DNA of 64,000 bases from Flectonema sp. DT1601 (GCA_964019425.1 OZ025805.1:1-64000); one strand, 5' to 3'; counted from the first letter of the stretch, positions 9,001 to 28,436 are shown. Notes: generated from the letters alone by a model not told the origin. Numbers and translations are program-made.

Positions 9001-12000
9001 GGGTTTGCGGGTTTGCGGGTTTGCGGGTTTGCGGGTTTGCGGGTTTGCGGGTTTGCGGGTTTGCGGGTTTGCGGGTTTGCGGGTTTGCGGGTTTGCGGGT
9101 TTGCGGGTTTGCGGGTTTGCGGGTTTGCGGGTTTGCGGGTTTGCGGGTTTGCGGGTTTGCGGGTTTGCGGGTTTGCGGGTTTGCGGGTTTGCGGGTTTGC
9201 GGGTTTGCGGGTTTGCGGGTTTGCGGGTTTGCGGGTTTGCGGGTTTGCGGGTTTGCGGGTTTGCGGGTTTGCGGGTTTGCGGGTTTGCGGGTTTGCGGGT
9301 TTGCGGGTTTGCGGGTTTGCGGGTTTGCGGGTTTGCGGGTTTGCGGGTTTGCGGGTTTGCGGGTTTGCGGGTTTGCGGGTTTGCGGGTTTGCGGGTTTGC
9401 GGGTTTGCGGGTTTGCGGGTTTGCGGGTTTGCGGGTTTGCGGGTTTGCGGGTTTGCGGGTTTGCGGGTTTGCGGGTTTGCGGGTTTGCGGGTTTGCGGGT
9501 TTGCGGGTTTGCGGGTTTGCGGGTTTGCGGGTTTGCGGGTTTGCGGGTTTGCGGGTTTGCGGGTTTGCGGGTTTGCGGGTTTGCGGGTTTGCGGGTTTGC
9601 GGGTTTGCGGGTTTGCGGGTTTGCGGGTTTGCGGGTTTGCGGGTTTGCGGGTTTGCGGGTTTGCGGGTTTGCGGGTTTGCGGGTTTGCGGGTTTGCGGGT
9701 TTGCGGGTTTGCGGGTTTGCGGGTTTGCGGGTTTGCGGGTTTGCGGGTTTGCGGGTTTGCGGGTTTGCGGGTTTGCGGGTTTGCGGGTTTGCGGGTTTGC
9801 GGGTTTGCGGGTTTGCGGGTTTGCGGGTTTGCGGGTTTGCGGGTTTGCGGGTTTGCGGGTTTGCGGGTTTGCGGGTTTGCGGGTTTGCGGGTTTGCGGGT
9901 TTGCGGGTTTGCGGGTTTGCGGGTTTGCGGGTTTGCGGGTTTGCGGGTTTGCGGGTTTGCGGGTTTGCGGGTTTGCGGGTTTGCGGGTTTGCGGGTTTGC
10001 GGGTTTGCGGGTTTGCGGGTTTGCGGGTTTGCGGGTTTGCGGGTTTGCGGGTTTGCGGGTTTGCGGGTTTGCGGGTTTGCGGGTTTGCGGGTTTGCGGGT
10101 TTGCGGGTTTGCGGGTTTGCGGGTTTGCGGGTTTGCGGGTTTGCGGGTTTGCGGGTTTGCGGGTTTGCGGGTTTGCGGGTTTGCGGGTTTGCGGGTTTGC
10201 GGGTTTGCGGGTTTGCGGGTTTGCGGGTTTGCGGGTTTGCGGGTTTGCGGGTTTGCGGGTTTGCGGGTTTGCGGGTTTGCGGGTTTGCGGGTTTGCGGGT
10301 TTGCGGGTTTGCGGGTTTGCGGGTTTGCGGGTTTGCGGGTTTGCGGGTTTGCGGGTTTGCGGGTTTGCGGGTTTGCGGGTTTGCGGGTTTGCGGGTTTGC
10401 GGGTTTGCGGGTTTGCGGGTTTGCGGGTTTGCGGGTTTGCGGGTTTGCGGGTTTGCGGGTTTGCGGGTTTGCGGGTTTGCGGGTTTGCGGGTTTGCGGGT
10501 TTGCGGGTTTGCGGGTTTGCGGGTTTGCGGGTTTGCGGGTTTGCGGGTTTGCGGGTTTGCGGGTTTGCGGGTTTGCGGGTTTGCGGGTTTGCGGGTTTGC
10601 GGGTTTGCGGGTTTGCGGGTTTGCGGGTTTGCGGGTTTGCGGGTTTGCGGGTTTGCGGGTTTGCGGGTTTGCGGGTTTGCGGGTTTGCGGGTTTGCGGGT
10701 TTGCGGGTTTGCGGGTTTGCGGGTTTGCGGGTTTGCGGGTTTGCGGGTTTGCGGGTTTGCGGGTTTGCGGGTTTGCGGGTTTGCGGGTTTGCGGGTTTGC
10801 GGGTTTGCGGGTTTGCGGGTTTGCGGGTTTGCGGGTTTGCGGGTTTGCGGGTTTGCGGGTTTGCGGGTTTGCGGGTTTGCGGGTTTGCGGGTTTGCGGGT
10901 TTGCGGGTTTGCGGGTTTGCGGGTTTGCGGGTTTGCGGGTTTGCGGGTTTGCGGGTTTGCGGGTTTGCGGGTTTGCGGGTTTGCGGGTTTGCGGGTTTGC
11001 GGGTTTGCGGGTTTGCGGGTTTGCGGGTTTGCGGGTTTGCGGGTTTGCGGGTTTGCGGGTTTGCGGGTTTGCGGGTTTGCGGGTTTGCGGGTTTGCGGGT
11101 TTGCGGGTTTGCGGGTTTGCGGGTTTGCGGGTTTGCGGGTTTGCGGGTTTGCGGGTTTGCGGGTTTGCGGGTTTGCGGGTTTGCGGGTTTGCGGGTTTGC
11201 GGGTTTGCGGGTTTGCGGGTTTGCGGGTTTGCGGGTTTGCGGGTTTGCGGGTTTGCGGGTTTGCGGGTTTGCGGGTTTGCGGGTTTGCGGGTTTGCGGGT
11301 TTGCGGGTTTGCGGGTTTGCGGGTTTGCGGGTTTGCGGGTTTGCGGGTTTGCGGGTTTGCGGGTTTGCGGGTTTGCGGGTTTGCGGGTTTGCGGGTTTGC
11401 GGGTTTGCGGGTTTGCGGGTTTGCGGGTTTGCGGGTTTGCGGGTTTGCGGGTTTGCGGGTTTGCGGGTTTGCGGGTTTGCGGGTTTGCGGGTTTGCGGGT
11501 TTGCGGGTTTGCGGGTTTGCGGGTTTGCGGGTTTGCGGGTTTGCGGGTTTGCGGGTTTGCGGGTTTGCGGGTTTGCGGGTTTGCGGGTTTGCGGGTTTGC
11601 GGGTTTGCGGGTTTGCGGGTTTGCGGGTTTGCGGGTTTGCGGGTTTGCGGGTTTGCGGGTTTGCGGGTTTGCGGGTTTGCGGGTTTGCGGGTTTGCGGGT
11701 TTGCGGGTTTGCGGGTTTGCGGGTTTGCGGGTTTGCGGGTTTGCGGGTTTGCGGGTTTGCGGGTTTGCGGGTTTGCGGGTTTGCGGGTTTGCGGGTTTGC
11801 GGGTTTGCGGGTTTGCGGGTTTGCGGGTTTGCGGGTTTGCGGGTTTGCGGGTTTGCGGGTTTGCGGGTTTGCGGGTTTGCGGGTTTGCGGGTTTGCGGGT
11901 TTGCGGGTTTGCGGGTTTGCGGGTTTGCGGGTTTGCGGGTTTGCGGGTTTGCGGGTTTGCGGGTTTGCGGGTTTGCGGGTTTGCGGGTTTGCGGGTTTGC

Positions 12001-15000
12001 GGGTTTGCGGGTTTGCGGGTTTGCGGGTTTGCGGGTTTGCGGGTTTGCGGGTTTGCGGGTTTGCGGGTTTGCGGGTTTGCGGGTTTGCGGGTTTGCGGGT
12101 TTGCGGGTTTGCGGGTTTGCGGGTTTGCGGGTTTGCGGGTTTGCGGGTTTGCGGGTTTGCGGGTTTGCGGGTTTGCGGGTTTGCGGGTTTGCGGGTTTGC
12201 GGGTTTGCGGGTTTGCGGGTTTGCGGGTTTGCGGGTTTGCGGGTTTGCGGGTTTGCGGGTTTGCGGGTTTGCGGGTTTGCGGGTTTGCGGGTTTGCGGGT
12301 TTGCGGGTTTGCGGGTTTGCGGGTTTGCGGGTTTGCGGGTTTGCGGGTTTGCGGGTTTGCGGGTTTGCGGGTTTGCGGGTTTGCGGGTTTGCGGGTTTGC
12401 GGGTTTGCGGGTTTGCGGGTTTGCGGGTTTGCGGGTTTGCGGGTTTGCGGGTTTGCGGGTTTGCGGGTTTGCGGGTTTGCGGGTTTGCGGGTTTGCGGGT
12501 TTGCGGGTTTGCGGGTTTGCGGGTTTGCGGGTTTGCGGGTTTGCGGGTTTGCGGGTTTGCGGGTTTGCGGGTTTGCGGGTTTGCGGGTTTGCGGGTTTGC
12601 GGGTTTGCGGGTTTGCGGGTTTGCGGGTTTGCGGGTTTGCGGGTTTGCGGGTTTGCGGGTTTGCGGGTTTGCGGGTTTGCGGGTTTGCGGGTTTGCGGGT
12701 TTGCGGGTTTGCGGGTTTGCGGGTTTGCGGGTTTGCGGGTTTGCGGGTTTGCGGGTTTGCGGGTTTGCGGGTTTGCGGGTTTGCGGGTTTGCGGGTTTGC
12801 GGGTTTGCGGGTTTGCGGGTTTGCGGGTTTGCGGGTTTGCGGGTTTGCGGGTTTGCGGGTTTGCGGGTTTGCGGGTTTGCGGGTTTGCGGGTTTGCGGGT
12901 TTGCGGGTTTGCGGGTTTGCGGGTTTGCGGGTTTGCGGGTTTGCGGGTTTGCGGGTTTGCGGGTTTGCGGGTTTGCGGGTTTGCGGGTTTGCGGGTTTGC
13001 GGGTTTGCGGGTTTGCGGGTTTGCGGGTTTGCGGGTTTGCGGGTTTGCGGGTTTGCGGGTTTGCGGGTTTGCGGGTTTGCGGGTTTGCGGGTTTGCGGGT
13101 TTGCGGGTTTGCGGGTTTGCGGGTTTGCGGGTTTGCGGGTTTGCGGGTTTGCGGGTTTGCGGGTTTGCGGGTTTGCGGGTTTGCGGGTTTGCGGGTTTGC
13201 GGGTTTGCGGGTTTGCGGGTTTGCGGGTTTGCGGGTTTGCGGGTTTGCGGGTTTGCGGGTTTGCGGGTTTGCGGGTTTGCGGGTTTGCGGGTTTGCGGGT
13301 TTGCGGGTTTGCGGGTTTGCGGGTTTGCGGGTTTGCGGGTTTGCGGGTTTGCGGGTTTGCGGGTTTGCGGGTTTGCGGGTTTGCGGGTTTGCGGGTTTGC
13401 GGGTTTGCGGGTTTGCGGGTTTGCGGGTTTGCGGGTTTGCGGGTTTGCGGGTTTGCGGGTTTGCGGGTTTGCGGGTTTGCGGGTTTGCGGGTTTGCGGGT
13501 TTGCGGGTTTGCGGGTTTGCGGGTTTGCGGGTTTGCGGGTTTGCGGGTTTGCGGGTTTGCGGGTTTGCGGGTTTGCGGGTTTGCGGGTTTGCGGGTTTGC
13601 GGGTTTGCGGGTTTGCGGGTTTGCGGGTTTGCGGGTTTGCGGGTTTGCGGGTTTGCGGGTTTGCGGGTTTGCGGGTTTGCGGGTTTGCGGGTTTGCGGGT
13701 TTGCGGGTTTGCGGGTTTGCGGGTTTGCGGGTTTGCGGGTTTGCGGGTTTGCGGGTTTGCGGGTTTGCGGGTTTGCGGGTTTGCGGGTTTGCGGGTTTGC
13801 GGGTTTGCGGGTTTGCGGGTTTGCGGGTTTGCGGGTTTGCGGGTTTGCGGGTTTGCGGGTTTGCGGGTTTGCGGGTTTGCGGGTTTGCGGGTTTGCGGGT
13901 TTGCGGGTTTGCGGGTTTGCGGGTTTGCGGGTTTGCGGGTTTGCGGGTTTGCGGGTTTGCGGGTTTGCGGGTTTGCGGGTTTGCGGGTTTGCGGGTTTGC
14001 GGGTTTGCGGGTTTGCGGGTTTGCGGGTTTGCGGGTTTGCGGGTTTGCGGGTTTGCGGGTTTGCGGGTTTGCGGGTTTGCGGGTTTGCGGGTTTGCGGGT
14101 TTGCGGGTTTGCGGGTTTGCGGGTTTGCGGGTTTGCGGGTTTGCGGGTTTGCGGGTTTGCGGGTTTGCGGGTTTGCGGGTTTGCGGGTTTGCGGGTTTGC
14201 GGGTTTGCGGGTTTGCGGGTTTGCGGGTTTGCGGGTTTGCGGGTTTGCGGGTTTGCGGGTTTGCGGGTTTGCGGGTTTGCGGGTTTGCGGGTTTGCGGGT
14301 TTGCGGGTTTGCGGGTTTGCGGGTTTGCGGGTTTGCGGGTTTGCGGGTTTGCGGGTTTGCGGGTTTGCGGGTTTGCGGGTTTGCGGGTTTGCGGGTTTGC
14401 GGGTTTGCGGGTTTGCGGGTTTGCGGGTTTGCGGGTTTGCGGGTTTGCGGGTTTGCGGGTTTGCGGGTTTGCGGGTTTGCGGGTTTGCGGGTTTGCGGGT
14501 TTGCGGGTTTGCGGGTTTGCGGGTTTGCGGGTTTGCGGGTTTGCGGGTTTGCGGGTTTGCGGGTTTGCGGGTTTGCGGGTTTGCGGGTTTGCGGGTTTGC
14601 GGGTTTGCGGGTTTGCGGGTTTGCGGGTTTGCGGGTTTGCGGGTTTGCGGGTTTGCGGGTTTGCGGGTTTGCGGGTTTGCGGGTTTGCGGGTTTGCGGGT
14701 TTGCGGGTTTGCGGGTTTGCGGGTTTGCGGGTTTGCGGGTTTGCGGGTTTGCGGGTTTGCGGGTTTGCGGGTTTGCGGGTTTGCGGGTTTGCGGGTTTGC
14801 GGGTTTGCGGGTTTGCGGGTTTGCGGGTTTGCGGGTTTGCGGGTTTGCGGGTTTGCGGGTTTGCGGGTTTGCGGGTTTGCGGGTTTGCGGGTTTGCGGGT
14901 TTGCGGGTTTGCGGGTTTGCGGGTTTGCGGGTTTGCGGGTTTGCGGGTTTGCGGGTTTGCGGGTTTGCGGGTTTGCGGGTTTGCGGGTTTGCGGGTTTGC

Positions 15001-18000
15001 GGGTTTGCGGGTTTGCGGGTTTGCGGGTTTGCGGGTTTGCGGGTTTGCGGGTTTGCGGGTTTGCGGGTTTGCGGGTTTGCGGGTTTGCGGGTTTGCGGGT
15101 TTGCGGGTTTGCGGGTTTGCGGGTTTGCGGGTTTGCGGGTTTGCGGGTTTGCGGGTTTGCGGGTTTGCGGGTTTGCGGGTTTGCGGGTTTGCGGGTTTGC
15201 GGGTTTGCGGGTTTGCGGGTTTGCGGGTTTGCGGGTTTGCGGGTTTGCGGGTTTGCGGGTTTGCGGGTTTGCGGGTTTGCGGGTTTGCGGGTTTGCGGGT
15301 TTGCGGGTTTGCGGGTTTGCGGGTTTGCGGGTTTGCGGGTTTGCGGGTTTGCGGGTTTGCGGGTTTGCGGGTTTGCGGGTTTGCGGGTTTGCGGGTTTGC
15401 GGGTTTGCGGGTTTGCGGGTTTGCGGGTTTGCGGGTTTGCGGGTTTGCGGGTTTGCGGGTTTGCGGGTTTGCGGGTTTGCGGGTTTGCGGGTTTGCGGGT
15501 TTGCGGGTTTGCGGGTTTGCGGGTTTGCGGGTTTGCGGGTTTGCGGGTTTGCGGGTTTGCGGGTTTGCGGGTTTGCGGGTTTGCGGGTTTGCGGGTTTGC
15601 GGGTTTGCGGGTTTGCGGGTTTGCGGGTTTGCGGGTTTGCGGGTTTGCGGGTTTGCGGGTTTGCGGGTTTGCGGGTTTGCGGGTTTGCGGGTTTGCGGGT
15701 TTGCGGGTTTGCGGGTTTGCGGGTTTGCGGGTTTGCGGGTTTGCGGGTTTGCGGGTTTGCGGGTTTGCGGGTTTGCGGGTTTGCGGGTTTGCGGGTTTGC
15801 GGGTTTGCGGGTTTGCGGGTTTGCGGGTTTGCGGGTTTGCGGGTTTGCGGGTTTGCGGGTTTGCGGGTTTGCGGGTTTGCGGGTTTGCGGGTTTGCGGGT
15901 TTGCGGGTTTGCGGGTTTGCGGGTTTGCGGGTTTGCGGGTTTGCGGGTTTGCGGGTTTGCGGGTTTGCGGGTTTGCGGGTTTGCGGGTTTGCGGGTTTGC
16001 GGGTTTGCGGGTTTGCGGGTTTGCGGGTTTGCGGGTTTGCGGGTTTGCGGGTTTGCGGGTTTGCGGGTTTGCGGGTTTGCGGGTTTGCGGGTTTGCGGGT
16101 TTGCGGGTTTGCGGGTTTGCGGGTTTGCGGGTTTGCGGGTTTGCGGGTTTGCGGGTTTGCGGGTTTGCGGGTTTGCGGGTTTGCGGGTTTGCGGGTTTGC
16201 GGGTTTGCGGGTTTGCGGGTTTGCGGGTTTGCGGGTTTGCGGGTTTGCGGGTTTGCGGGTTTGCGGGTTTGCGGGTTTGCGGGTTTGCGGGTTTGCGGGT
16301 TTGCGGGTTTGCGGGTTTGCGGGTTTGCGGGTTTGCGGGTTTGCGGGTTTGCGGGTTTGCGGGTTTGCGGGTTTGCGGGTTTGCGGGTTTGCGGGTTTGC
16401 GGGTTTGCGGGTTTGCGGGTTTGCGGGTTTGCGGGTTTGCGGGTTTGCGGGTTTGCGGGTTTGCGGGTTTGCGGGTTTGCGGGTTTGCGGGTTTGCGGGT
16501 TTGCGGGTTTGCGGGTTTGCGGGTTTGCGGGTTTGCGGGTTTGCGGGTTTGCGGGTTTGCGGGTTTGCGGGTTTGCGGGTTTGCGGGTTTGCGGGTTTGC
16601 GGGTTTGCGGGTTTGCGGGTTTGCGGGTTTGCGGGTTTGCGGGTTTGCGGGTTTGCGGGTTTGCGGGTTTGCGGGTTTGCGGGTTTGCGGGTTTGCGGGT
16701 TTGCGGGTTTGCGGGTTTGCGGGTTTGCGGGTTTGCGGGTTTGCGGGTTTGCGGGTTTGCGGGTTTGCGGGTTTGCGGGTTTGCGGGTTTGCGGGTTTGC
16801 GGGTTTGCGGGTTTGCGGGTTTGCGGGTTTGCGGGTTTGCGGGTTTGCGGGTTTGCGGGTTTGCGGGTTTGCGGGTTTGCGGGTTTGCGGGTTTGCGGGT
16901 TTGCGGGTTTGCGGGTTTGCGGGTTTGCGGGTTTGCGGGTTTGCGGGTTTGCGGGTTTGCGGGTTTGCGGGTTTGCGGGTTTGCGGGTTTGCGGGTTTGC
17001 GGGTTTGCGGGTTTGCGGGTTTGCGGGTTTGCGGGTTTGCGGGTTTGCGGGTTTGCGGGTTTGCGGGTTTGCGGGTTTGCGGGTTTGCGGGTTTGCGGGT
17101 TTGCGGGTTTGCGGGTTTGCGGGTTTGCGGGTTTGCGGGTTTGCGGGTTTGCGGGTTTGCGGGTTTGCGGGTTTGCGGGTTTGCGGGTTTGCGGGTTTGC
17201 GGGTTTGCGGGTTTGCGGGTTTGCGGGTTTGCGGGTTTGCGGGTTTGCGGGTTTGCGGGTTTGCGGGTTTGCGGGTTTGCGGGTTTGCGGGTTTGCGGGT
17301 TTGCGGGTTTGCGGGTTTGCGGGTTTGCGGGTTTGCGGGTTTGCGGGTTTGCGGGTTTGCGGGTTTGCGGGTTTGCGGGTTTGCGGGTTTGCGGGTTTGC
17401 GGGTTTGCGGGTTTGCGGGTTTGCGGGTTTGCGGGTTTGCGGGTTTGCGGGTTTGCGGGTTTGCGGGTTTGCGGGTTTGCGGGTTTGCGGGTTTGCGGGT
17501 TTGCGGGTTTGCGGGTTTGCGGGTTTGCGGGTTTGCGGGTTTGCGGGTTTGCGGGTTTGCGGGTTTGCGGGTTTGCGGGTTTGCGGGTTTGCGGGTTTGC
17601 GGGTTTGCGGGTTTGCGGGTTTGCGGGTTTGCGGGTTTGCGGGTTTGCGGGTTTGCGGGTTTGCGGGTTTGCGGGTTTGCGGGTTTGCGGGTTTGCGGGT
17701 TTGCGGGTTTGCGGGTTTGCGGGTTTGCGGGTTTGCGGGTTTGCGGGTTTGCGGGTTTGCGGGTTTGCGGGTTTGCGGGTTTGCGGGTTTGCGGGTTTGC
17801 GGGTTTGCGGGTTTGCGGGTTTGCGGGTTTGCGGGTTTGCGGGTTTGCGGGTTTGCGGGTTTGCGGGTTTGCGGGTTTGCGGGTTTGCGGGTTTGCGGGT
17901 TTGCGGGTTTGCGGGTTTGCGGGTTTGCGGGTTTGCGGGTTTGCGGGTTTGCGGGTTTGCGGGTTTGCGGGTTTGCGGGTTTGCGGGTTTGCGGGTTTGC

Positions 18001-20835
18001 GGGTTTGCGGGTTTGCGGGTTTGCGGGTTTGCGGGTTTGCGGGTTTGCGGGTTTGCGGGTTTGCGGGTTTGCGGGTTTGCGGGTTTGCGGGTTTGCGGGT
18101 TTGCGGGTTTGCGGGTTTGCGGGTTTGCGGGTTTGCGGGTTTGCGGGTTTGCGGGTTTGCGGGTTTGCGGGTTTGCGGGTTTGCGGGTTTGCGGGTTTGC
18201 GGGTTTGCGGGTTTGCGGGTTTGCGGGTTTGCGGGTTTGCGGGTTTGCGGGTTTGCGGGTTTGCGGGTTTGCGGGTTTGCGGGTTTGCGGGTTTGCGGGT
18301 TTGCGGGTTTGCGGGTTTGCGGGTTTGCGGGTTTGCGGGTTTGCGGGTTTGCGGGTTTGCGGGTTTGCGGGTTTGCGGGTTTGCGGGTTTGCGGGTTTGC
18401 GGGTTTGCGGGTTTGCGGGTTTGCGGGTTTGCGGGTTTGCGGGTTTGCGGGTTTGCGGGTTTGCGGGTTTGCGGGTTTGCGGGTTTGCGGGTTTGCGGGT
18501 TTGCGGGTTTGCGGGTTTGCGGGTTTGCGGGTTTGCGGGTTTGCGGGTTTGCGGGTTTGCGGGTTTGCGGGTTTGCGGGTTTGCGGGTTTGCGGGTTTGC
18601 GGGTTTGCGGGTTTGCGGGTTTGCGGGTTTGCGGGTTTGCGGGTTTGCGGGTTTGCGGGTTTGCGGGTTTGCGGGTTTGCGGGTTTGCGGGTTTGCGGGT
18701 TTGCGGGTTTGCGGGTTTGCGGGTTTGCGGGTTTGCGGGTTTGCGGGTTTGCGGGTTTGCGGGTTTGCGGGTTTGCGGGTTTGCGGGTTTGCGGGTTTGC
18801 GGGTTTGCGGGTTTGCGGGTTTGCGGGTTTGCGGGTTTGCGGGTTTGCGGGTTTGCGGGTTTGCGGGTTTGCGGGTTTGCGGGTTTGCGGGTTTGCGGGT
18901 TTGCGGGTTTGCGGGTTTGCGGGTTTGCGGGTTTGCGGGTTTGCGGGTTTGCGGGTTTGCGGGTTTGCGGGTTTGCGGGTTTGCGGGTTTGCGGGTTTGC
19001 GGGTTTGCGGGTTTGCGGGTTTGCGGGTTTGCGGGTTTGCGGGTTTGCGGGTTTGCGGGTTTGCGGGTTTGCGGGTTTGCGGGTTTGCGGGTTTGCGGGT
19101 TTGCGGGTTTGCGGGTTTGCGGGTTTGCGGGTTTGCGGGTTTGCGGGTTTGCGGGTTTGCGGGTTTGCGGGTTTGCGGGTTTGCGGGTTTGCGGGTTTGC
19201 GGGTTTGCGGGTTTGCGGGTTTGCGGGTTTGCGGGTTTGCGGGTTTGCGGGTTTGCGGGTTTGCGGGTTTGCGGGTTTGCGGGTTTGCGGGTTTGCGGGT
19301 TTGCGGGTTTGCGGGTTTGCGGGTTTGCGGGTTTGCGGGTTTGCGGGTTTGCGGGTTTGCGGGTTTGCGGGTTTGCGGGTTTGCGGGTTTGCGGGTTTGC
19401 GGGTTTGCGGGTTTGCGGGTTTGCGGGTTTGCGGGTTTGCGGGTTTGCGGGTTTGCGGGTTTGCGGGTTTGCGGGTTTGCGGGTTTGCGGGTTTGCGGGT
19501 TTGCGGGTTTGCGGGTTTGCGGGTTTGCGGGTTTGCGGGTTTGCGGGTTTGCGGGTTTGCGGGTTTGCGGGTTTGCGGGTTTGCGGGTTTGCGGGTTTGC
19601 GGGTTTGCGGGTTTGCGGGTTTGCGGGTTTGCGGGTTTGCGGGTTTGCGGGTTTGCGGGTTTGCGGGTTTGCGGGTTTGCGGGTTTGCGGGTTTGCGGGT
19701 TTGCGGGTTTGCGGGTTTGCGGGTTTGCGGGTTTGCGGGTTTGCGGGTTTGCGGGTTTGCGGGTTTGCGGGTTTGCGGGTTTGCGGGTTTGCGGGTTTGC
19801 GGGTTTGCGGGTTTGCGGGTTTGCGGGTTTGCGGGTTTGCGGGTTTGCGGGTTTGCGGGTTTGCGGGTTTGCGGGTTTGCGGGTTTGCGGGTTTGCGGGT
19901 TTGCGGGTTTGCGGGTTTGCGGGTTTGCGGGTTTGCGGGTTTGCGGGTTTGCGGGTTTGCGGGTTTGCGGGTTTGCGGGTTTGCGGGTTTGCGGGTTTGC
20001 GGGTTTGCGGGTTTGCGGGTTTGCGGGTTTGCGGGTTTGCGGGTTTGCGGGTTTGCGGGTTTGCGGGTTTGCGGGTTTGCGGGTTTGCGGGTTTGCGGGT
20101 TTGCGGGTTTGCGGGTTTGCGGGTTTGCGGGTTTGCGGGTTTGCGGGTTTGCGGGTTTGCGGGTTTGCGGGTTTGCGGGTTTGCGGGTTTGCGGGTTTGC
20201 GGGTTTGCGGGTTTGCGGGTTTGCGGGTTTGCGGGTTTGCGGGTTTGCGGGTTTGCGGGTTTGCGGGTTTGCGGGTTTGCGGGTTTGCGGGTTTGCGGGT
20301 TTGCGGGTTTGCGGGTTTGCGGGTTTGCGGGTTTGCGGGTTTGCGGGTTTGCGGGTTTGCGGGTTTGCGGGTTTGCGGGTTTGCGGGTTTGCGGGTTTGC
20401 GGGTTTGCGGGTTTGCGGGTTTGCGGGTTTGCGGGTTTGCGGGTTTGCGGGTTTGCGGGTTTGCGGGTTTGCGGGTTTGCGGGTTTGCGGGTTTGCGGGT
20501 TTGCGGGTTTGCGGGTTTGCGGGTTTGCGGGTTTGCGGGTTTGCGGGTTTGCGGGTTTGCGGGTTTGCGGGTTTGCGGGTTTGCGGGTTTGCGGGTTTGC
20601 GGGTTTGCGGGTTTGCGGGTTTGCGGGTTTGCGGGTTTGCGGGTTTGCGGGTTTGCGGGTTTGCGGGTTTGCGGGTTTGCGGGTTTGCGGGTTTGCGGGT
20701 TTGCGGGTTTGCGGGTTTGCGGGTTTGCGGGTTTGCGGGTTTGCGGGTTTGCGGGTTTGCGGGTTTGCGGGTTTGCGGGTTTGCGGGTTTGCGGGTTTGC
20801 GGGTTTGCGGGTTTGCGGGTTTGCGGGTTTGCGGG
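1..20835 (+). repeat. Giant 8-bp tandem satellite (GGGTTTGC)n, about 2600 units, running off the left edge of the window
   Basis: Read directly. Only three irregularities were seen (near 6945, 8378 and 8674). It ends at ...tttgcggg|gaaccgctcgg. Confidence 0.99.
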
Positions 20836-21132
20836 GAACCGCTCGGCATTCTCAGTGAAGTACTGTTGAAAAGGAAAAGTCATAAAGGAGAGTCTGATAA
20901 AAACAATCACACGAATTAACCACATAACAAGATACTAGCATCATAAGCCTCATGTCGTCTTAGCTTTCCCATTTTCTCAGCTGAATAAAATGATGATGAG
21001 AAAGACAAAGGAGAACCAAGTTAACACGAAGCAACTCATTCACGAAGGGGTAATGGGAAAACGGCACGGCATGCTTGTACAATTGCATGTTCGACCACGG
21101 CCTAAAATCGGCCAGGGGAAAGGTTGGCACCG

Positions 21133-23952
21133 TCACACCACCACCACATCGCGAGTCAGAAAGGCCCTCACCGCAAGTTCAACTTCCCGCTGATGCTCCG
21201 ATGAGCCTATAACTCCTGGATCCACCCTCGGTGGCAAGTCTGCTGGGTTCAGCGCTGACTTCACATAAGCAATACAGAAACTAACCTTTCTGTCTGCCAG
21301 CACATCGATGGCCTGCACGACCGCATCGTTCAGCCGTTGCGATCGGACTGACATCTTCTTCCGTGCTACGCCAATGACTGACGTGTTGTCGATCCAGATG
21401 GACATTCGCTTGCCATCACAGCAAACCGGCATCCCCGAGACCGTGTTCCTGAACGCCATCCCCTCGAGAACATTGATGTGGAGCGACTGTTCCGAAGGAC
21501 CCCACGCATCCCCCAAGACAGTAACCTCGGCCGTCCTGTCGTTCACAACCACTCCACCCCAACCTCTCAACGACGCATCCACGAACGTCGTGAACCCATC
21601 TTGATCTGGCTCCCGCGCAACCACCCTCCTCGTCACAGCGGCAGCCGACCAACTGCGCAACTCCATCGCGACCGAAACAGGGACCGACACTACATCATGC
21701 ACCTGCCTCACCCCGCGGTTCAAACCGTTCGACAACCTCCGCAAGAACTTCAAGGCATACCAGTATTTCCCCGGAGACGCCGCAGCGATCGCCGACGCAT
21801 GCATCAGCCTCCCAGCCATCGACTCCAACTGACTCGCCGTCACAGACGACAAGTCCACCGCCGCCAACTTCCGCCGGATCTTCGCTGACGGCATGACCGA
21901 CGACGCCTCGTGGTCAAAGTCCACACCCAAAAATGTGTACTTGCTCACCGCCGTATTCGAGTCAGACGGCTTCCATGTAAGACGGAAATCCGCCGCCGCA
22001 GCATCGAGATTCACCGTCGCCGCCAACACCGCGCCTTCCGTCCCCGTGTACCGAATGTTGTCGATGAACACGTCAACGCCAACATCCCTGGCAGCCCACT
22101 GACGTCGCACGTAAGCTGGATCCCCCGCAGCCGCCGCTGCCAAAGAGTGCATCAGCTCCGGCGCGCAGACATGCCCCATCGGTAAACGGCACAGCTCGAA
22201 CCATTCACCCTCCGTCGTCTTGAATCGGAAGAGATCTCTCGCTTCCTCCGGGATTTCAATAGCATAAAAACCTGTCTTGAAATCCCGTGTCGAGCCAACC
22301 TCGGTCAGAACCCGATCCAAATATTTTGAGATGTGGAACAGCGGGACGTGAGCTTCGTAAGCTTCTTCGGCCCAACCATTCGCATCCCTCGTCCAAAGGA
22401 TGAACCGCTGCCGCAGTCCCTCCGGCTTCTCCTCCACCACGGTGAATGGAACGTTCACCGCTCTCCCCGGTCCACTCGCAGCTCGCGCGATCCCGTTCCT
22501 CAGCAACTCCGCAGCGTGCCTCCCAGCGAAAGATGAAGTAGACGACGAGCGACTCAACTTCCCCACCTCCGGATAAAAGGTCAAGTTCCACACCTGATCG
22601 AACCTATCCCTCGCAACATCAGTCATCCTACGTCTGAGTCCGTCAACATCCATCGTCTCAACGCCACTCACATGCAAAGGCGACGAACGTTCCTCCGCCG
22701 TCGACGGCAGTCTTGTCCGCTTGCCCCTCCTGATGATGCTGTGCGTCGTGCACGGAGACAGCCGCGCCACCGCTTCCATCGCCTCACCTTCGTCGTCAAC
22801 GTCCTCCGCAACTACAGCAGGATGGTGACCTTCCACGTTTGCAGCGCTCGGGCGGTGTCCACGAAATCCGACGAATACCTGATCGTTGTTGCAGAGATGT
22901 TGGTTCCGTCTTCGGCGTGCTTCAACAGTCGTGATACCAGGTACCCTTCTGTGAGCCTTCCCTCGGCCATCGCTCGCATCAAAGCCGCGGCGGCGCCTCG
23001 TTTTATCGAGTGGCCCGTAAAACCCCGCATTCCCGGAGTCCCCCGCCACAACTCTGCCAACCGCTCGGTGGTGACATCCGTCAGCCGATCGAAAGGAGCC
23101 AGCTCCCGAAACAAGCTTGCGATCTCCCCGACCAGATCCCCCCGCAAGACCGCCCAACGGGACGGCACGAACGGGTTTGCTCTCCGGTGTTTTGGCGACG
23201 TCCCCCAGTCCACGATCACTTCCGCGTCCTCCACCAGAACGAAATGCGCCGACGTCAGCACGTGCACTTCTCCCCACCGGGAAGCCGACTTCCAACACAC
23301 CAACGCCGCGAGCCTCAAACGTCCCGTTAGACTTCTCGCCCAACCCAACAGCTGCTCCTTTGACATGGGAACTGCTTGCGAACGCGGAACGGCCGCCCCT
23401 TTTGCCCTCAGCGCGCTTGCCAGGCTGAGGAGCGGTTGGTTTTCCAGACCAAGGCGCCGGTAGATCCCGGACAGCGCCTTTGCGTATTGCAGCTGTCCCT
23501 GCGGTCTCACGTCTGTGGCCAGCACGAACAACGCAGCTGTTTCGGCAGACATTGGCAGACGCTGAGCCAACGCCCATTGTTCCAACCGACCCCAGAGGTT
23601 TCTGCGCTTCGACGAGGTTTCGTCCGCCCACATCGACGCGACGACCACCCCCAGACGCTCCAACGCTGTGTCGTGGTCCACCCTTACTTCCATCGTGTCT
23701 CCACGGTGTCGATCGTCCCTCCGGATGTGTTCGAGGACCACCTTCCCGAAAACCGACGGAACTTCCACCTGCGCAGCGCATCTTCGTTTTCGGAATCCCT
23801 CTTGCGTACTCGCGCAAGGTTCCGGTGCGACGACACTCGTTGACCCACGTCGCATTCCAGCTGGCACCGCGCCGACCAGGAGAGGCCGCGGCCCACTTGC
23901 CGCCCCTCCTCCCGCGACGCCCTCTACGGGTTTGTTTACGGCCAGGATTCAA
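21133..23952 (-). CDS. Reverse transcriptase + RNase H (Pol). RT/RH core from about 22779; the upstream part of the frame overlaps the YR ORF
   Basis: RT motifs RDFKTGFYAI, RLPMGHVCAP, VFIDN and TFLGVDF. DIRS-type RNase H motifs FVDASLRGWGG, HINVLEG, WIDNTSV and NPADLP. Confidence 0.93.
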   Translation of the reverse strand: MNPGRKQTRRGRRGRRGGKWAAASPGRRGASWNATWVNECRRTGTLREYARGIPKTKMRCAGGSSVGFREGGPRTHPEGRSTPWRHDGSKGGPRHSVGASGGGRRVDVGGRNLVEAQKPLGSVGTMGVGSASANVCRNSCVVRAGHRRETAGTAAIRKGAVRDLPAPWSGKPTAPQPGKRAEGKRGGRSAFASSSHVKGAAVGLGEKSNGTFEARGVGVLEVGFPVGRSARADVGAFRSGGGRGSDRGLGDVAKTPESKPVRAVPLGGLAGGSGRGDRKLVSGAGSFRSADGCHHRAVGRVVAGDSGNAGFYGPLDKTRRRRGFDASDGRGKAHRRVPGITTVEARRRRNQHLCNNDQVFVGFRGHRPSAANVEGHHPAVVAEDVDDEGEAMEAVARLSPCTTHSIIRRGKRTRLPSTAEERSSPLHVSGVETMDVDGLRRRMTDVARDRFDQVWNLTFYPEVGKLSRSSSTSSFAGRHAAELLRNGIARAASGPGRAVNVPFTVVEEKPEGLRQRFILWTRDANGWAEEAYEAHVPLFHISKYLDRVLTEVGSTRDFKTGFYAIEIPEEARDLFRFKTTEGEWFELCRLPMGHVCAPELMHSLAAAAAGDPAYVRRQWAARDVGVDVFIDNIRYTGTEGAVLAATVNLDAAAADFRLTWKPSDSNTAVSKYTFLGVDFDHEASSVMPSAKIRRKLAAVDLSSVTASQLESMAGRLMHASAIAAASPGKYWYALKFLRRLSNGLNRGVRQVHDVVSVPVSVAMELRSWSAAAVTRRVVAREPDQDGFTTFVDASLRGWGGVVVNDRTAEVTVLGDAWGPSEQSLHINVLEGMAFRNTVSGMPVCCDGKRMSIWIDNTSVIGVARKKMSVRSQRLNDAVVQAIDVLADRKVSFCIAYVKSALNPADLPPRVDPGVIGSSEHQREVELAVRAFLTRDVVVV
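22812..23867 (-). CDS. Tyrosine recombinase (phage-integrase fold); true start uncertain
   Basis: Catalytic R...K...HxxR...H...Y set is visible: SASRWGE, TSPK, TGHSIKRG, LLKHA, TTIRYS. Same frame as ORF1, separated from it only by TGA at 23949-23951. Confidence 0.92.
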   Translation of the reverse strand: MPAGMRRGSTSVVAPEPCASTQEGFRKRRCAAQVEVPSVFGKVVLEHIRRDDRHRGDTMEVRVDHDTALERLGVVVASMWADETSSKRRNLWGRLEQWALAQRLPMSAETAALFVLATDVRPQGQLQYAKALSGIYRRLGLENQPLLSLASALRAKGAAVPRSQAVPMSKEQLLGWARSLTGRLRLAALVCWKSASRWGEVHVLTSAHFVLVEDAEVIVDWGTSPKHRRANPFVPSRWAVLRGDLVGEIASLFRELAPFDRLTDVTTERLAELWRGTPGMRGFTGHSIKRGAAAALMRAMAEGRLTEGYLVSRLLKHAEDGTNISATTIRYSSDFVDTARALQTWKVTILL

Positions 23953-23979
23953 TTCCCCCGACCACGCCCCCCGTTTTTT
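23938..23979 (-). other. Predicted -1 programmed ribosomal frameshift signal (A AAA AAC + 7-nt spacer + hairpin)
   Basis: Minus strand reads CCA AAA AAC GGGGGGC GTGGTCGGG-GGAATTGAAT-CCTGGCCGT. The heptamer is in the correct phase of ORF1, and the -1 frame is the open RT frame. Confidence 0.7.
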
Positions 23980-25985
23980 GGAAAGTGTTGTGGCTGTTGT
24001 CCGGTCGTTGTCGTCCCCCTCACCAAACCGGCTGGCCTGCTACCCTTCAACGCTACCTTCCTCGCCGCAGCGGTGGTGGGGTCCTCCCAGCTCTCAGCCA
24101 GCGCCTTCAGGTACAAGTCGCCACTCCTGCTCCCGTGCTCCCCCCGAATCAGTTGGAACTCCAGCATCTCGTGAAGCAACCCTAAGGTCACTTCCTCCCC
24201 ACCGTTGATGGTCGCCTCCACCGTCTTCGCCAACAGACCTACCATCTGCTTCGCAACTTGCGAACCACCCTCTCCGAACTTCTCCGTGATCGCCCGCCGG
24301 AGGAGGGACATCTCCACGTCACCTCGCCCACCGTAGCCAGCCCACAACGTATGCTGCGCCGCTGCCTGTTCCAATGGCACCTGCACCGCAGGCACCTCCG
24401 CATTCCAATGGGCCAACAGCCAACCTTCTTCTTTAAATTGTTCAGGCGTGAGCACAAAGAATGACTCCCGCCTACCAATCAATCCCAGGACCACCTCCCC
24501 GGTCACACCGTCGAGATCCACCACGAATCCCTTGTCCGACCCGCGCTTCACCTTCGATCCCCTGCACATACCTGCCGGGAAAGCGACCACCTTCGTCTTC
24601 GGTACTAGGTGGTGGAGCGTTGTCGCCATCTGCGATAACACCGTGCTCAGCCCGTCCTGCGCTGTCGGTGCTTGCCGTTGTTGAAGCAGCAGACCCTGCT
24701 GCTGTAGCGCCTGCTGCTGCAGCGCCTGCTGTTGTTGAGTCATCTGCTGTTGCTGTGCGTTCAGACTCTCCTCCAACCTCCGTTGTTCCTGTTGCTGAAA
24801 CTTGTTCTGCTCCTGTTGCAGCAGCTGCTGTTGCTGGAGCTGCTGCTGCTGAAGCTGCTGCTCGTTGCTCTTCGCTTGTTCCGCCAGCTTGTGCTGGTCC
24901 AGCTGGCGTTGCTGTTCCTGTTGTTGCACTTGTTGTTGCTTCAGCAGCTCGTCCCGAAGCCTTAACTGCTCCTCCAACTTCCGTTGATCCTCTTGGAACT
25001 GTTGTTGCTGAGCTTGCTGTTGTTGAATCTGCTTCTGTTGCTGTTCTTGTGCCAATTGACTCTGCAGTTCTTGCTTTTGTTGCTGCTGCTTCTGTAATTC
25101 CTGCTCCTCCCTCTGTTGGTCCAGCAGGTTTTGCTGCAGCTCGAGTCGCTGCCGCAACTCCTCCCGCTTCTGCTGCTCGGTCTTCAGCACCCCGTCCTGT
25201 CTGGCCTTTTCCTTCGCCATCTGCATCACAGCCTCCCCGAGCTCTTCCTGCCTATCCGCTACGGAGTTGAAAGCCTCTTCGGCCGCACCTTCAACCATGG
25301 CGGTGTGTTCTTCCGCCTTCACCTGCCTCCGGGCTTGCTCGTTGATCACCTGGGCCACCCGGCTCACGGTGACTTCCAGGTTCTCCCCGGCCGTCGTGCG
25401 TTGTGCTTGGCGAGCAGCCAACTGCTCCGTCACCGATTGGTGGGCCACAGCCTGACCCTTCAGCTCCCGGTAGGCCATGCCTCCCGCGCGAGCCAACCCC
25501 TCCAAACTGGGGTTCGTTCCCGAAACCGGTTCCGCGAAAACCGGCGGTGGCACCTGTTCCATCGAGTCCACCTCCATCACCATGAGGGTCGACCTCCCCC
25601 CCGTCATCGGCGACGGAACCGAGGGTGCCGAGCCCGTCATCGTCCCCAGCCTTCTCATCCTCTCCTTCACCGCATCGGCGTTGACCTCGACCAGGCCCGT
25701 CAACAGCACGAACACAGTCCGTGCCGACAGCGTTCTCGCCAACCCCACCGGGATGTCGAGACACAGAGCTAACAACTTGTCGTTGCCAGCTCTGCGGGAT
25801 GAATTGCTGTCCTCCCGACAGGTGGGCATCCAAATGCTGTCCCCACCGGACAGCCCCATCGCTTGTTGGAACCTGCGGTTCCTTGCCTCCAGGGACACCT
25901 TCATGCGCCCCACCTCCCCTAGTATCGCCTTCGCCTTCCCGGCGATACTAGCGGGCACCGAAAAATCATAATAATGATCCGGCAT
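23949..25985 (-). CDS. ORF1, gag-like protein with long Gln-rich coiled coil (678 aa)
   Basis: ATG-initiated first ORF of the element, Q/E-rich coiled-coil centre, RG-rich C-terminus. Gag identity is inferred from position only. Confidence 0.75.
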   Translation of the reverse strand: MPDHYYDFSVPASIAGKAKAILGEVGRMKVSLEARNRRFQQAMGLSGGDSIWMPTCREDSNSSRRAGNDKLLALCLDIPVGLARTLSARTVFVLLTGLVEVNADAVKERMRRLGTMTGSAPSVPSPMTGGRSTLMVMEVDSMEQVPPPVFAEPVSGTNPSLEGLARAGGMAYRELKGQAVAHQSVTEQLAARQAQRTTAGENLEVTVSRVAQVINEQARRQVKAEEHTAMVEGAAEEAFNSVADRQEELGEAVMQMAKEKARQDGVLKTEQQKREELRQRLELQQNLLDQQREEQELQKQQQQKQELQSQLAQEQQQKQIQQQQAQQQQFQEDQRKLEEQLRLRDELLKQQQVQQQEQQRQLDQHKLAEQAKSNEQQLQQQQLQQQQLLQQEQNKFQQQEQRRLEESLNAQQQQMTQQQQALQQQALQQQGLLLQQRQAPTAQDGLSTVLSQMATTLHHLVPKTKVVAFPAGMCRGSKVKRGSDKGFVVDLDGVTGEVVLGLIGRRESFFVLTPEQFKEEGWLLAHWNAEVPAVQVPLEQAAAQHTLWAGYGGRGDVEMSLLRRAITEKFGEGGSQVAKQMVGLLAKTVEATINGGEEVTLGLLHEMLEFQLIRGEHGSRSGDLYLKALAESWEDPTTAAARKVALKGSRPAGLVRGTTTTGQQPQHFPKNGGRGRGN

Positions 25986-26204
25986 ATTTTCTAAAACGCT
26001 TTGCGTTAAGACCCCTTCCTAGCCTGAATAAATGAGTACAATGAAATAATGATAAGAGAAACAGTGAAATGATAATTCTGAAATAAAGACAAGAGAACAG
26101 AAATAATACTTAAACAACATTTAATATTGATCAATGAAAAGGAAAATATTATAAGAGTATATCGTACTTCACTTGCCTTTTGTGCAGTTCCCAGTCTGAG
26201 TGTT

Positions 26205-26238
26205 GGTTTGCGGGTTTGCGGGTTTGCGGGTTTGCGGG
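26205..26238 (+). repeat. About 4 units of the GGGTTTGC satellite between two element insertions
   Basis: Read directly. Confidence 0.97.
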
Positions 26239-26767
26239 GAACCGCTCGGCATTCTCAGTGAAGTACTGTTGAAAAGGAAAAGTCATAAAGGAGAGTCTGA
26301 TAAAAACAATCACACGAATTAACCACATAACAAGATACTAGCATCATACGCCTCATGTCGTCTTAGCTTTCCCATTTTCTCAGCTGAATAAAATGATGAT
26401 GAGAAAGACAAAGGAGAACCAAGTTAACACGAAGCAACTCATTCACGAAGGGGTAATGGGAAAACGGCACCGCATGCTTGTACAATTGCATGTTCGACCA
26501 CGGCCTAAAATCGGCCGGGGGAAAGGTTGGCACCGTCACAGGGGTAGGGCGGGTGGGAAAACGCTTTGCGTTAAGACCCTTCCTAGCCTGAATAAATGAG
26601 TACAATGAAATAATGATAAGAGAACAGTAAAATGATAAATCTGAAATAATAACAAGAGAACAAAAATGATACTTAAACAACATTTAATGTTGATCAATGA
26701 AAAGGAAAATATTATAAGAGTATATCGTACTTCACTTGCCTTTTGTGCAGTTCCCAGTCTGAGTGTT
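26239..26767 (-). mobile_element. 529-bp non-autonomous derivative (SIRE-like) of the adjacent YR retrotransposon
   Basis: 26239-26540 nearly matches 20836-21137 and 26558-26767 nearly matches 25993-26204. They are joined by the 17-nt GGGGTAGGGCGGGTGGG. Satellite junctions are identical to the full-length element. Confidence 0.85.
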
Positions 26768-27041
26768 GGTTTGCGGGTTTGCGGGTTTGCGGGTTTGCGG
26801 GTTTGCGGGTTTGCGGGTTTGCGGGTTTGCGGGTTTGCGGGTTTGCGGGTTTGCGGGTTTGCGGGTTTGCGGGTTTGCGGGTTTGCGGGTTTGCGGGTTT
26901 GCGGGTTTGCGGGTTTGCGGGTTTGCGGGTTTGCGGGTTTGCGGGTTTGCGGGTTTGCGGGTTTGCGGGTTTGCGGGTTTGCGGGTTTGCGGGTTTGCGG
27001 GTTTGCGGGTTTGCGGGTTTGCGGGTTTGCGGGTTTGCGGG
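26768..27041 (+). repeat. About 34 units of the GGGTTTGC satellite
   Basis: Read directly. Confidence 0.98.
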
Positions 27042-27509
27042 GAAACGCTTGGCATTTAATTCTGGCACCCTGATTTTAAGAGGAAGGAAATAAAGAACAC
27101 GTTAACACAGGAAAGAAAGAATTGGCGAAGTTAAATCCGCACTATGTCTACTGATCCTGACATGTCTTGTCAAACTGGCAAAAATACGAAAAATGAAAAC
27201 AAACTAACATCAGATATTCAAGTCTCAAGGTTGTTCATCCGCGATGGGGTAAACTGTAGTGTGGTACTCGAGCCTCGGAAGAGGCCCCACGGTAGTTAGC
27301 ACAGTCTACCACCAAAGAACTTGGCACACTGAAGTCGTAATAGACTTCGGCCATTGTTTTTCCTTTATCCTGTACCACAAACTACAGAAGAATGAACATT
27401 AAGAGAGAGGTAGAGTGAACGCAAAGCAAACACAAAGCTAAGATGTAAATGGATAACGCAGAACATCAAAGGCGCCGAATACCATTGAGCAGTTCCCTGT
27501 GAAAAGATA
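27042..27509 (-). mobile_element. 468-bp diverged non-autonomous relative of the same family
   Basis: Left end gaaacgcttggcatt vs gaaccgctcggcatt. GCAGTTCCC lies exactly 12 nt from the right end, as in the other two elements. Collinear internal blocks (ggggtaa, ttggcac). Same satellite phase at both junctions. Confidence 0.72.
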
Positions 27510-27618
27510 GGTTTGCGGGTTTGCGGGTTTGCGGGTTTGCGGGTTTGCGGGTTTGCGGGTTTGCGGGTTTGCGGGTTTGCGGGTTTGCGGGTTTTGCGGG
27601 TTTGCGGGTTTGCGGGTT
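27510..27618 (+). repeat. About 13 units of the GGGTTTGC satellite, plus a 2-unit remnant near 27743-27757
   Basis: Read directly. Confidence 0.97.
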
Positions 27619-28291: not shown

Positions 28292-28436
28292 ATTTTCGCT
28301 ATTGGGGTGCCTGATAATGTCATTTTCGCTATTCACTAAAAGCAGTAACTTTTTTTTCGCTGTTCACTAGAAGTGATAATTTTTTTTCGCCGTTCAGTAA
28401 AAGAAAATTTTTTTTTTCGCTGTTCACTACAAGTTA
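28292..28436. repeat. About 30-bp degenerate tandem repeat x5 (TTTTCGCTRTTCACTA core)
   Basis: Core recurs near 28293, 28323, 28354, 28384 and 28414. Confidence 0.75.

Follow-up and report, generated by a model that had tools for sequence, protein, structure and literature searches.

The kinetoplastid retrotransposon VIPER, published as encoding Gag, a tyrosine recombinase (YR) along with a reverse transcriptase/RNase H (RT/RH) of 446, 335 and 942 amino acids (aa), has been described as having 'two overlapping genes' (PMC5146736), and '2 overlapped ORFs' (open reading frames) are reported for both VIPER and TATE (PMC12278014). TATE, found in Leishmania braziliensis and other trypanosomatids, forms tandem clusters at one relative position in telomeric repeats (PMC6681497), and TATE-like ORFs occur in Diplonema papillatum (PMC10161547). 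Extensive dual coding of YR and pol has also been described in half of 28 DIRS1-like elements (PMC3266345); unlike in the element studied here, their gene order is gag, RT/RH/methyltransferase, YR, and the overlap joins the 3' part of pol to the 5' part of YR. Here we analyze a 5.9-kb YR retrotransposon on the minus strand, at 20836-26767, of a 64,000-nucleotide (nt) stretch of DNA from Flectonema sp. DT1601 (GCA_964019425.1 OZ025805.1:1-64000), the whole of which we call the window. We propose that -1 programmed ribosomal frameshifting at a heptamer, A AAA AAC, near the end of gag probably gives its RT, in the form of a Gag-spacer-RT fusion.

Frameshifting by -1 between gag and pol is textbook biology, with A AAA AAC or G GGA AAC and a stem serving as the signal in human T-cell leukemia virus (HTLV), mouse mammary tumor virus (MMTV), Mason-Pfizer monkey virus (MPMV) and astrovirus. 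The present element shares with retroviral and long terminal repeat (LTR) retrotransposon gag-pol sites an in-phase X XXY YYZ heptamer within the overlap, a spacer of 5-7 nt, a predicted downstream stem-loop and a pol gene in the -1 frame. In human immunodeficiency virus type 1 (HIV-1), GGG follows the heptamer, as it does here (PMC4373837). Unlike at those sites, the shifted ribosome would have to cross a whole second gene, 340-400 codons in the alternative frame, before reaching pol; the gag stop is placed in the apical loop; and directly behind that stop YR begins as a third protein in the zero frame. In the literature searched, we found no description linking YR retrotransposons to ribosomal frameshifting, and PMC6681497 uses the word frameshift for mutations only. 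The YR/RT overlap of VIPER and TATE is already known; the recoding signal is what is new, within the literature searched.

By its gene order, overlap and motifs, the element is provisionally assigned to the VIPER type, as a new, diplonemid-lineage member of that kind. It resembles VIPER (order DIRS; T. cruzi, C. fasciculata and B. saltans) in the order gag-like gene, YR, RT/RNase H; in an RT/RH ORF of ~940-970 codons that lies over the whole of YR; in having what seem to be split direct repeats; and in a cassette of heptamer, TGA and same-frame YR, read by hand in VIPER. By eye, the two also share the YR motifs WK/ITASRWGEV and HSIKRGA and the RT motif FTVVEEK..G.R.R. They differ in that the hosts of VIPER are kinetoplastids, whereas the named relatives of the present element all come from Diplonema papillatum; in that the gag here lacks a CCHC box; and in that the element here sits in a tandem 8-mer array. 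The repeats here are arranged A-B-(8-mer x4)-A-ORFs-B, rather than A1-ORFs-B1-A2-B2 as in VIPER; the arrangement here may represent a head-to-tail junction or a solo unit. Like TATE in its telomeric repeats, the element lies at a fixed phase in a repeat array, (GGGTTTGC)n, with head-to-tail junctions. It differs from TATE in that the -1 frame after gag in TATE is the YR-containing ORF2 itself (~980 aa), with no spacer, and, by eye, the YR and RT motifs of TATE are less like those in the window than VIPER's are.

Results

The RT frame is open across the entire recombinase gene

In the sense direction the element runs repeat A, ORF1 (gag-like), TGA, the YR frame, RT/RNase H and repeat B, with 8-mer units and an extra B-A unit upstream (Table 1). 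The YR frame (23948..22812, 378 codons) is open back to the gag TGA and shares the frame of ORF1, so that, as the original prediction had stated and our ORF table agrees, this single TGA is the sole stop between them. The RT frame extends from stop to stop over 968 codons (24039..21133). One of its codons begins at 23979, so relative to gag it is the -1 frame.

That same prediction had this -1 frame staying open for about 390 codons across the recombinase, and the statistics bear it out. Over the 378 YR codons the -1 frame contains no stop, versus a mean of 8.15 in synonymous-codon shuffles, which preserve both the YR protein and its codon usage. A stop-free frame appeared in a fraction of ~1e-4 of 20000 synonymous shuffles and in none of 20000 codon-order shuffles. 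Other frames served as controls: there are 13 stops in the +1 frame of YR, 10 over the 678 codons of gag when read at -1, and 14 over the 548 codons of the RT core when read at -1. The translated spacer is 19% Gly, 14% Arg and 11% Ala. These sequence statistics indicate that the open -1 frame over YR is not due to chance and is kept by selection. If RT is reached from gag by a -1 slip, the whole YR gene must stay stop-free in its second frame.

A slippery heptamer and a predicted hairpin lie at the end of gag

ORF1 ends with CCA AAA AAC GGG GGG CGT GGT CGG GGG AAT TGA. The first A of the heptamer is the third base of the CCA codon, which gives the correct X XXY YYZ phasing foreseen for A AAA AAC at this position, and the heptamer lies seven codons ahead of the gag TGA. 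In codon shuffles of the window gag, the chance of an in-phase XXXAAAC within the last 30 codons is 0.0046. Across six ORFs of the window and of a metagenomic relative described below, L001 (2694 codons), there are four in-phase XXXYYYZ sites (Y = A or T); two of these four are XXXAAAC, and they lie 28 and 31 nt from the two gag ends.

A hairpin 7 nt downstream of the heptamer, with the ORF1 TGA in its loop, had also been proposed, and fold prediction returns it at 8-9 bp. Its arms (23965/63-23956 and 23947-23940/38) form 8 bp in the minimum free energy structure and 9 bp in the centroid structure, including three G.U pairs, and its 8-nt loop, GAAUUGAA (23955-23948), contains the gag UGA.

A metagenomic relative with a dissimilar gag has the same arrangement

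We scanned contig collections with the RT alignment. There were no relatives in viral_contigs and one irrelevant weak match in genome_contigs. In metagenome_contigs there were 49 loci, and the order gag-YR-RT was found in L001 only; at the other metagenome loci YR, where seen, is downstream of RT. Public sequencing runs X1-X3, at 80% likeness, yielded near-identical low-depth contigs alone and no diverged DNA of the element.

L001 is 3438 nt long, with 34% RT identity to the window. It comprises the terminal part of one RT/RNase H (3-821), some 400 non-coding nt, a gag (1013-2518 stop-to-stop, with an ATG at 1226 and a TGA at 2516-2518) and, in the frame of gag, a YR that runs from 2519 to the contig end and has an ATG 12 nt past the TGA. 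From 2419 onward the -1 frame meets no stop before the contig ends, and it overlaps gag by 100 nt. Within that overlap the sequence GCG GGA AAC GGG supplies an in-phase G GGA AAC (2485-2491), eight codons ahead of the TGA; the chance of an XXXAAAC in the last 30 codons of this gag is 0.0034.

The -1 frame over the L001 YR has no stop in 306 codons, versus 4.81 expected (P 0.0033). It also lacks a Met for 255 codons past the heptamer, and initiation at an AUG thus cannot be the reason why it is open. A stretch of 93 nt that begins 3 nt past the heptamer folds at -43.0 kcal/mol (z -3.6), a value equaled by none of 200 shuffles, with a first stem that begins 5 nt past the heptamer and the TGA inside an inner hairpin.

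The gag of L001 has no detectable similarity to that of the window (best E 0.18), and the two YRs are 27% identical. An in-phase XXXAAAC followed by GGG, 7-8 codons before a TGA gag stop, is thus common to the window and L001 despite dissimilar gags. A MAFFT alignment of the two junctions placed the heptamers out of register and was not used.

Most protein relatives tested keep the open frame

Many RT homologues are 800-1140 aa long and have 270-600 junk-like residues ahead of the conserved RT N-terminal motif. We devised a two-frame compatibility test for such extensions, in which each pair of adjacent residues is converted to the amino acids possible in the +1-shifted codon and the result is matched along diagonals to real YR proteins. 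The window's own pair of frames scores 378/378. From 89 RT matches we picked 27 relatives by length, leaving out the element's own family (P0004, P0005), two copies that are broken (P0013, P0023), and the D. papillatum gene models from NCBI, in which predicted introns may be present. In 20 of these 27 the N-terminal extension proved to be the -1 frame of a YR gene, with scores of 0.51-0.63 against at most 0.40 for reversed or shuffled controls. A stop-free RT frame across YR is, on this protein-level comparison, kept down to ~41% RT identity, A+T-richer elements included. In the A+T-rich P0233, P0234 and P0238, K-K dipeptides are too frequent in the -1 frame for the slip site to be located from protein.

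In three gene models of D. papillatum (P0085, P0236 and P0251), gag, YR and RT are joined as single proteins of 1190-1278 aa. Each model has jumps where gag ends (after ...GGK) and at the Tyr of YR (…AQMT|TRLPKT…), likely predicted introns that cover the stop and the frame change. P0085 and P0236 had been candidates for stop-less Gag-YR(-RT) fusions and were dropped, as NCBI gene models that may bridge stops by predicted introns.

Kinetoplastid VIPER and TATE elements end gag in a similar way

VIPER and TATE copies from the supplement of PMC6681497 were read by eye in 60-nt lines, without tools, so slips are possible; this holds for all VIPER and TATE readings in this section. In the first T. 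cruzi VIPER record, gag runs from an ATG at nt 212 to a TGA at 1550, its 446 codons matching the published length (PMC5146736). It ends CGT CCA TCA AAA AAC GGC CGA GGG GCT GCC GCA CGC CGC TCA TGA ATG: an in-phase A AAA AAC, nine codons, TGA and an immediate ATG. YR follows in the gag frame, its 338 codons likewise taken as the published length. RT ends at a stop in the -1 frame, and its ORF (942-948 aa) starts upstream of the heptamer. Beginning 6 nt past the heptamer, GGGGCTGCCG is a perfect complement of CGGCAGCCCC 24 nt further on; the stem is a perfect 10 bp, and inner pairs leave an 8-nt apical loop, UCAUGAAU. A second T. cruzi VIPER copy retains the heptamer, with variable adjacent bases.

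In C. fasciculata VIPER the sequence past a CCHC box is TTC CAA AAA AAA GGG AAG CGG GCC GGC TCG AAG TGA ATC GAG GCC, that is, an in-phase A AAA AAA, then GGG, with seven codons to the TGA and with YR in the gag frame. The context TGA ATC..GGCC is common to this copy and the window. Translated at -1, C. fasciculata gives P K K R E A G R L E V N R G R where the window gives S K K R G A W S G E L N P G R, and in C. fasciculata the frame continues Gly/Arg-rich as far as the RT motif. The C. fasciculata copy CfaC1_21 has a perfect CX2CX4HX4C box (C-TH-C-RRYG-H-PTKD-C) just before the heptamer, offset in frame from upstream gag by a T7 run; no CH-box is reported for C. fasciculata in PMC6681497.

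B. saltans VIPER has GCA AAG GGA AAC, eight codons and a TGA, with YR in the gag frame and RT in the -1 frame; some 260 codons of the -1 frame were read and no stop was met. The cassette is thus present in all five gag-YR-RT elements read at the DNA level: the window and L001 with tools, the three VIPERs by hand. Neither a missing heptamer nor a stop in the -1 frame, either of which would tell against the original prediction, was found in L001 or the hand-read VIPERs. In the window, C. fasciculata and T. cruzi, UGAA(U) sits in the 8-nt apical loop of a hairpin, and the stem sequences differ among the three.

The gag of L. braziliensis TATE ends GGG TCA AAA AAC TAA, an in-phase A AAA AAC that abuts the stop, and an ORF2 of ~1000 codons that ends in the recombinase is the -1 frame. 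The N-terminal half of this ORF2 shows, by eye, a His...Asp...Cys pattern (HWIAGLL ... DDCGLY), which we take to recall Ulp1-type cysteine peptidases.

Other routes to RT and to YR

Several points weigh against synthesis of RT by frameshifting, or against its reach among relatives. The hairpin of the window folds no better than shuffled sequence (z -1.1, with 25 of 200 shuffles folding equally well), and the corresponding 93-nt fold in the window has a z of -1.49, equaled by 20 of 200 shuffles. The remaining seven of the 27 protein relatives (P0033, P0065, P0070, P0075, P0231, P0232 and P0242) score 0.36-0.38 in the compatibility test, like the controls; they are gag-RT single ORFs with protein-like, gag-like N-termini and no YR between. 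In P0250, a gag protein of D. papillatum, the last residues are ...GGKSWYGQGNGYGGK, and no K-N is obvious there. The kinetoplastid evidence comes from a hand reading of 60-nt lines, and the C. fasciculata copy shifts frame at C7 and T7 runs upstream in gag, changes that are probably assembly noise.

Five of these proteins (P0033, P0065, P0075, P0231 and P0232), some of them from D. papillatum, may stand for a gag-RT ancestor or else for a sister family whose YR lies elsewhere. P0075 has a Cys/His cluster.

The strongest alternative is that RT/RNase H is translated alone from the AUG at 22779, 31 nt past the YR stop, either by reinitiation or from a spliced-leader sub-mRNA, the -1 frame over YR having no role in expression. 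A free RT could start at a Met just past the YR stop: the window and 12 of the 20 relatives with a YR overlap have such a Met, 22-33 residues ahead of the PLH motif. RT gene models of D. papillatum are 505-562 aa long. Spliced-leader trans-splicing is pervasive in diplonemids, which trans-splice essentially all mRNAs (PMC10161547), so sub-mRNAs are possible, and some T. cruzi copies are reported to have a shorter, non-overlapping ORF3 from alternative starts (PMC5146736). Such a free RT would nevertheless leave unexplained both the stop-free -1 frame (P ~1e-4 in the window and 0.0033 in L001; 20 of 27 relatives) and the conserved in-phase heptamer at the gag end, and the Met is missing from seven of the 20 relatives (P0006, P0007, P0008, P0010, P0030, P0035 and P0235; P0020, which was mis-anchored, is counted in neither the 12 nor the seven). 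We consider this reading unlikely as the sole route to RT, and free RT and fusion may coexist.

A different start is offered by two ATGs in the -1 frame within the YR region, at 23781 and 23577. Leaky-scanned overlapping genes are common in compact elements, and entry at one of these codons, by leaky scanning or another internal start, would give an extended RT unfused to Gag. The L001 frame, with neither Met nor stop for 255 codons past the heptamer, speaks against this; in the window the frame is open for 87 codons above the first ATG, ending 20 codons upstream of the heptamer; and the heptamer itself would go unexplained. We think an internal start very improbable. Transcriptional slippage, for which P3N-PIPO of potyviruses is a precedent and which would put RT in frame with gag by adding one A to some mRNAs at the A run (A6 in the window, A8 in the hand-read C. 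fasciculata VIPER), is scarcely credible given the three A residues of GGGAAAC in L001 and B. saltans and the conservation of X XXY YYZ phase and spacing to the stem rather than of run length.

Ribosomal frameshifting therefore stays our favored reading for RT, and the part of the original prediction that had Gag-Pol made by frameshift is supported by both statistics and comparison. On its other half, YR may come either as Gag-YR by readthrough or from re-initiation. All five elements read have a single TGA between gag and a YR in the gag frame, which fits readthrough. The stop contexts differ: UGA AUC in the window, UGA CUG in L001, UGA AUG in T. cruzi. Termination-reinitiation is suggested by the immediate AUG of T. 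cruzi, by the L001 ATG 12 nt past its TGA and by the start of the YR fold at Met86. We hold reinitiation to be somewhat likelier than readthrough, and a separate trans-spliced mRNA for YR the least likely route.

The encoded proteins

ORF1 is open stop-to-stop over 26018..23949, and its first ATG is at 25985. It is called gag-like by position only: it has no Pfam match and, as noted, no CCHC box. A word-based search with its C-terminal 220 aa gave matches confined to the element's own family, and an AlphaFold2 (AF2) model of the same residues, made without an alignment, had a predicted local distance difference test (pLDDT) score of 35.6 and was unusable. There is no similarity between the gag of the window and that of P0085.

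YR has 577 homologues (E <= 1e-3), and homology begins at about residues 87-106 of the stop-to-stop frame. Conserved columns include R139, K168, H228, R232, H259 and Y273 (numbered from Met86), the catalytic R-K-H-R-H-Y set. YR has no Pfam match, and a PDB sequence profile gave weak integrase matches alone (E 0.02-0.5). The AF2 model from Met86 has a pLDDT of 93.3 and best matches the Cre fold (5u91_A, E 1e-6, TM 0.60), followed by XerA, lambda Int and Tn1549 Int. We thus identify YR, on the modeled structure, as a tyrosine recombinase with a Cre-like fold, since the fold search decided where the PDB sequence profile stayed weak.

The RT part has 73 homologues, of which all named ones are hypothetical proteins of Diplonema papillatum with 47-53% identity. 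Its profile matches the Ty3 RT/RNase H 4ol8 (E 2.3e-5). The window RT scores below the cut-off for Pfam RVT_1 (E 0.026), and several relatives carry PF17917 or PF17919. By these profile matches the RT/RNase H is classed as Ty3-like. No protease domain was seen in the element.

The element and its setting

Table 1. Positions of the element's signals, genes and repeats in the window.
Feature	Position	Strand	Remarks
Slippery heptamer A AAA AAC, in phase with ORF1, then GGG	23973..23979	minus	
Gag stop TGA, then ATC	23949..23951	minus	
Hairpin, 7 nt past heptamer	23938..23965	minus	predicted fold, -12.6 kcal/mol
ORF1, gag-like, 678 aa, Q-rich coiled-coil middle	23949..25985	minus	P0077 identical, 678 aa
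Tyrosine recombinase (YR), 293 aa, Met86 (ATG 23693) to TAG 22814-22812	22812..23693	minus	
RT/RNase H core, 548 aa, ATG 22779 to TGA 21135-21133	21133..22779	minus	
-1 frame spacer, 400 codons, heptamer to RT Met, overprinting the whole YR gene	22780..23979	minus	
Repeat B, element 3' end in sense	20836..21137	minus	second copy 26239-26540
Repeat A, element 5' end in sense	25993..26204	minus	second copy 26558-26767; families D4, D7, D8, 96-100% identity
About four 8-mer units between A and the upstream B-A unit; head-to-tail junction	26205..26238	n/a	
(GGGTTTGC)n array, 2604 units, presumed insertion target	1..20835	n/a	further copies 26768-27041, 27510-27618

The G+C content of the element is 58-60%, versus 35-47% for the surrounding host region. 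Repeat family D3, which corresponds to B, spans 300 nt at 99% identity (20802-21101 versus 26205-26504), with 34 nt of 8-mer included. This copy of the element is young, as shown by repeat identities of 96-100% and by three ORFs that are all intact. The (GGGTTTGC)n array extends over at least 20.8 kb with 99% matches, and shorter arrays lie past the element. We found no mention of the 8-mer in the literature searched. The G-rich strand of the 8-mer, read 5'-3', heads away from the left end of the window; a chromosome end there would not be oriented in this way.

The full element and the solo B-A unit are inserted at the same 8-mer phase, ...TTTGCGGGG|AACC... and ...GTGTT|GGTTTGCG... at their two edges. 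The B-A unit (26239-26767), upstream of the full element, is without ORFs and is reminiscent of SIRE, which is the unit A2-B2 in T. cruzi VIPER (PMC6681497). One public contig, from run X1, connects A, 270 nt and the B/RT end, which points to head-to-tail arrays or circular forms of the element.

Directly past the second 8-mer array, the sequence at 27041-27100 (GGGAAACGCTTGGCATT...) resembles the start of repeat B (GGGGAACCGCTCGGCATT...) and is possibly a decayed older insertion. At 28323-28445 there is a 30-nt tandem repeat in four copies (TTTTCGCTGTTCACTA...) within the A+T-rich spacer, and long T and C runs follow it. The remainder of the window contains unidirectional, intron-less eukaryotic genes, among them genes for a SAM domain protein, a DUF1751 protein and a CoA-transferase III, and three tandem short-chain dehydrogenase genes (48889-50031, 51259-52401 and 53630-54829). 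Between 30.6 and 64 kb every ORF of at least 250 aa lies on the minus strand, a layout similar to the polycistronic gene clusters of Euglenozoa.

Discussion

In the model that we favor, most ribosomes that translate gag would stop at the UGA and release Gag of 678 aa. A minority would slip at the heptamer and produce a fusion of ~1617 aa, made up of 671 Gag codons and 946 RT-frame codons. The slipped ribosome would cross ~400 stop-free, Gly/Arg-rich codons over the YR gene, and this spacer would be retained solely as an open, probably disordered linker. YR (293 aa from Met86) is predicted to come from ribosomes that are just at the UGA, by reinitiation or readthrough, and would integrate the element into the (GGGTTTGC)n array, comparable to TATE in telomeric repeats.

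How widely this arrangement extends is a further question. We regard as evenly balanced the proposal that all VIPER-type elements of Euglenozoa, from diplonemids to Trypanosoma cruzi, share a recoding hub of ~40-60 nt, consisting of the heptamer and a hairpin with UGA in its loop, by which one mRNA is split into Gag, Gag-RT (with a spacer of 340-400 codons) and YR. If this proposal is true, the shared hub would account for the long-noted, unexplained YR/RT overlap of the VIPER-type group. A -1 slip from gag to RT would mean extreme selection on an otherwise meaningless frame, with ~1.1-1.2 kb of dual coding kept for passage alone. For annotation, 'RT' ORFs of 820-1140 aa and the intron-bridged gene models of D. 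papillatum are likely misreadings of the gag-YR-RT layout. More generally, the finding bears on how tyrosine-recombinase retrotransposons, the several hundred VIPER copies of T. cruzi included, may set the ratio of structural protein to enzyme.

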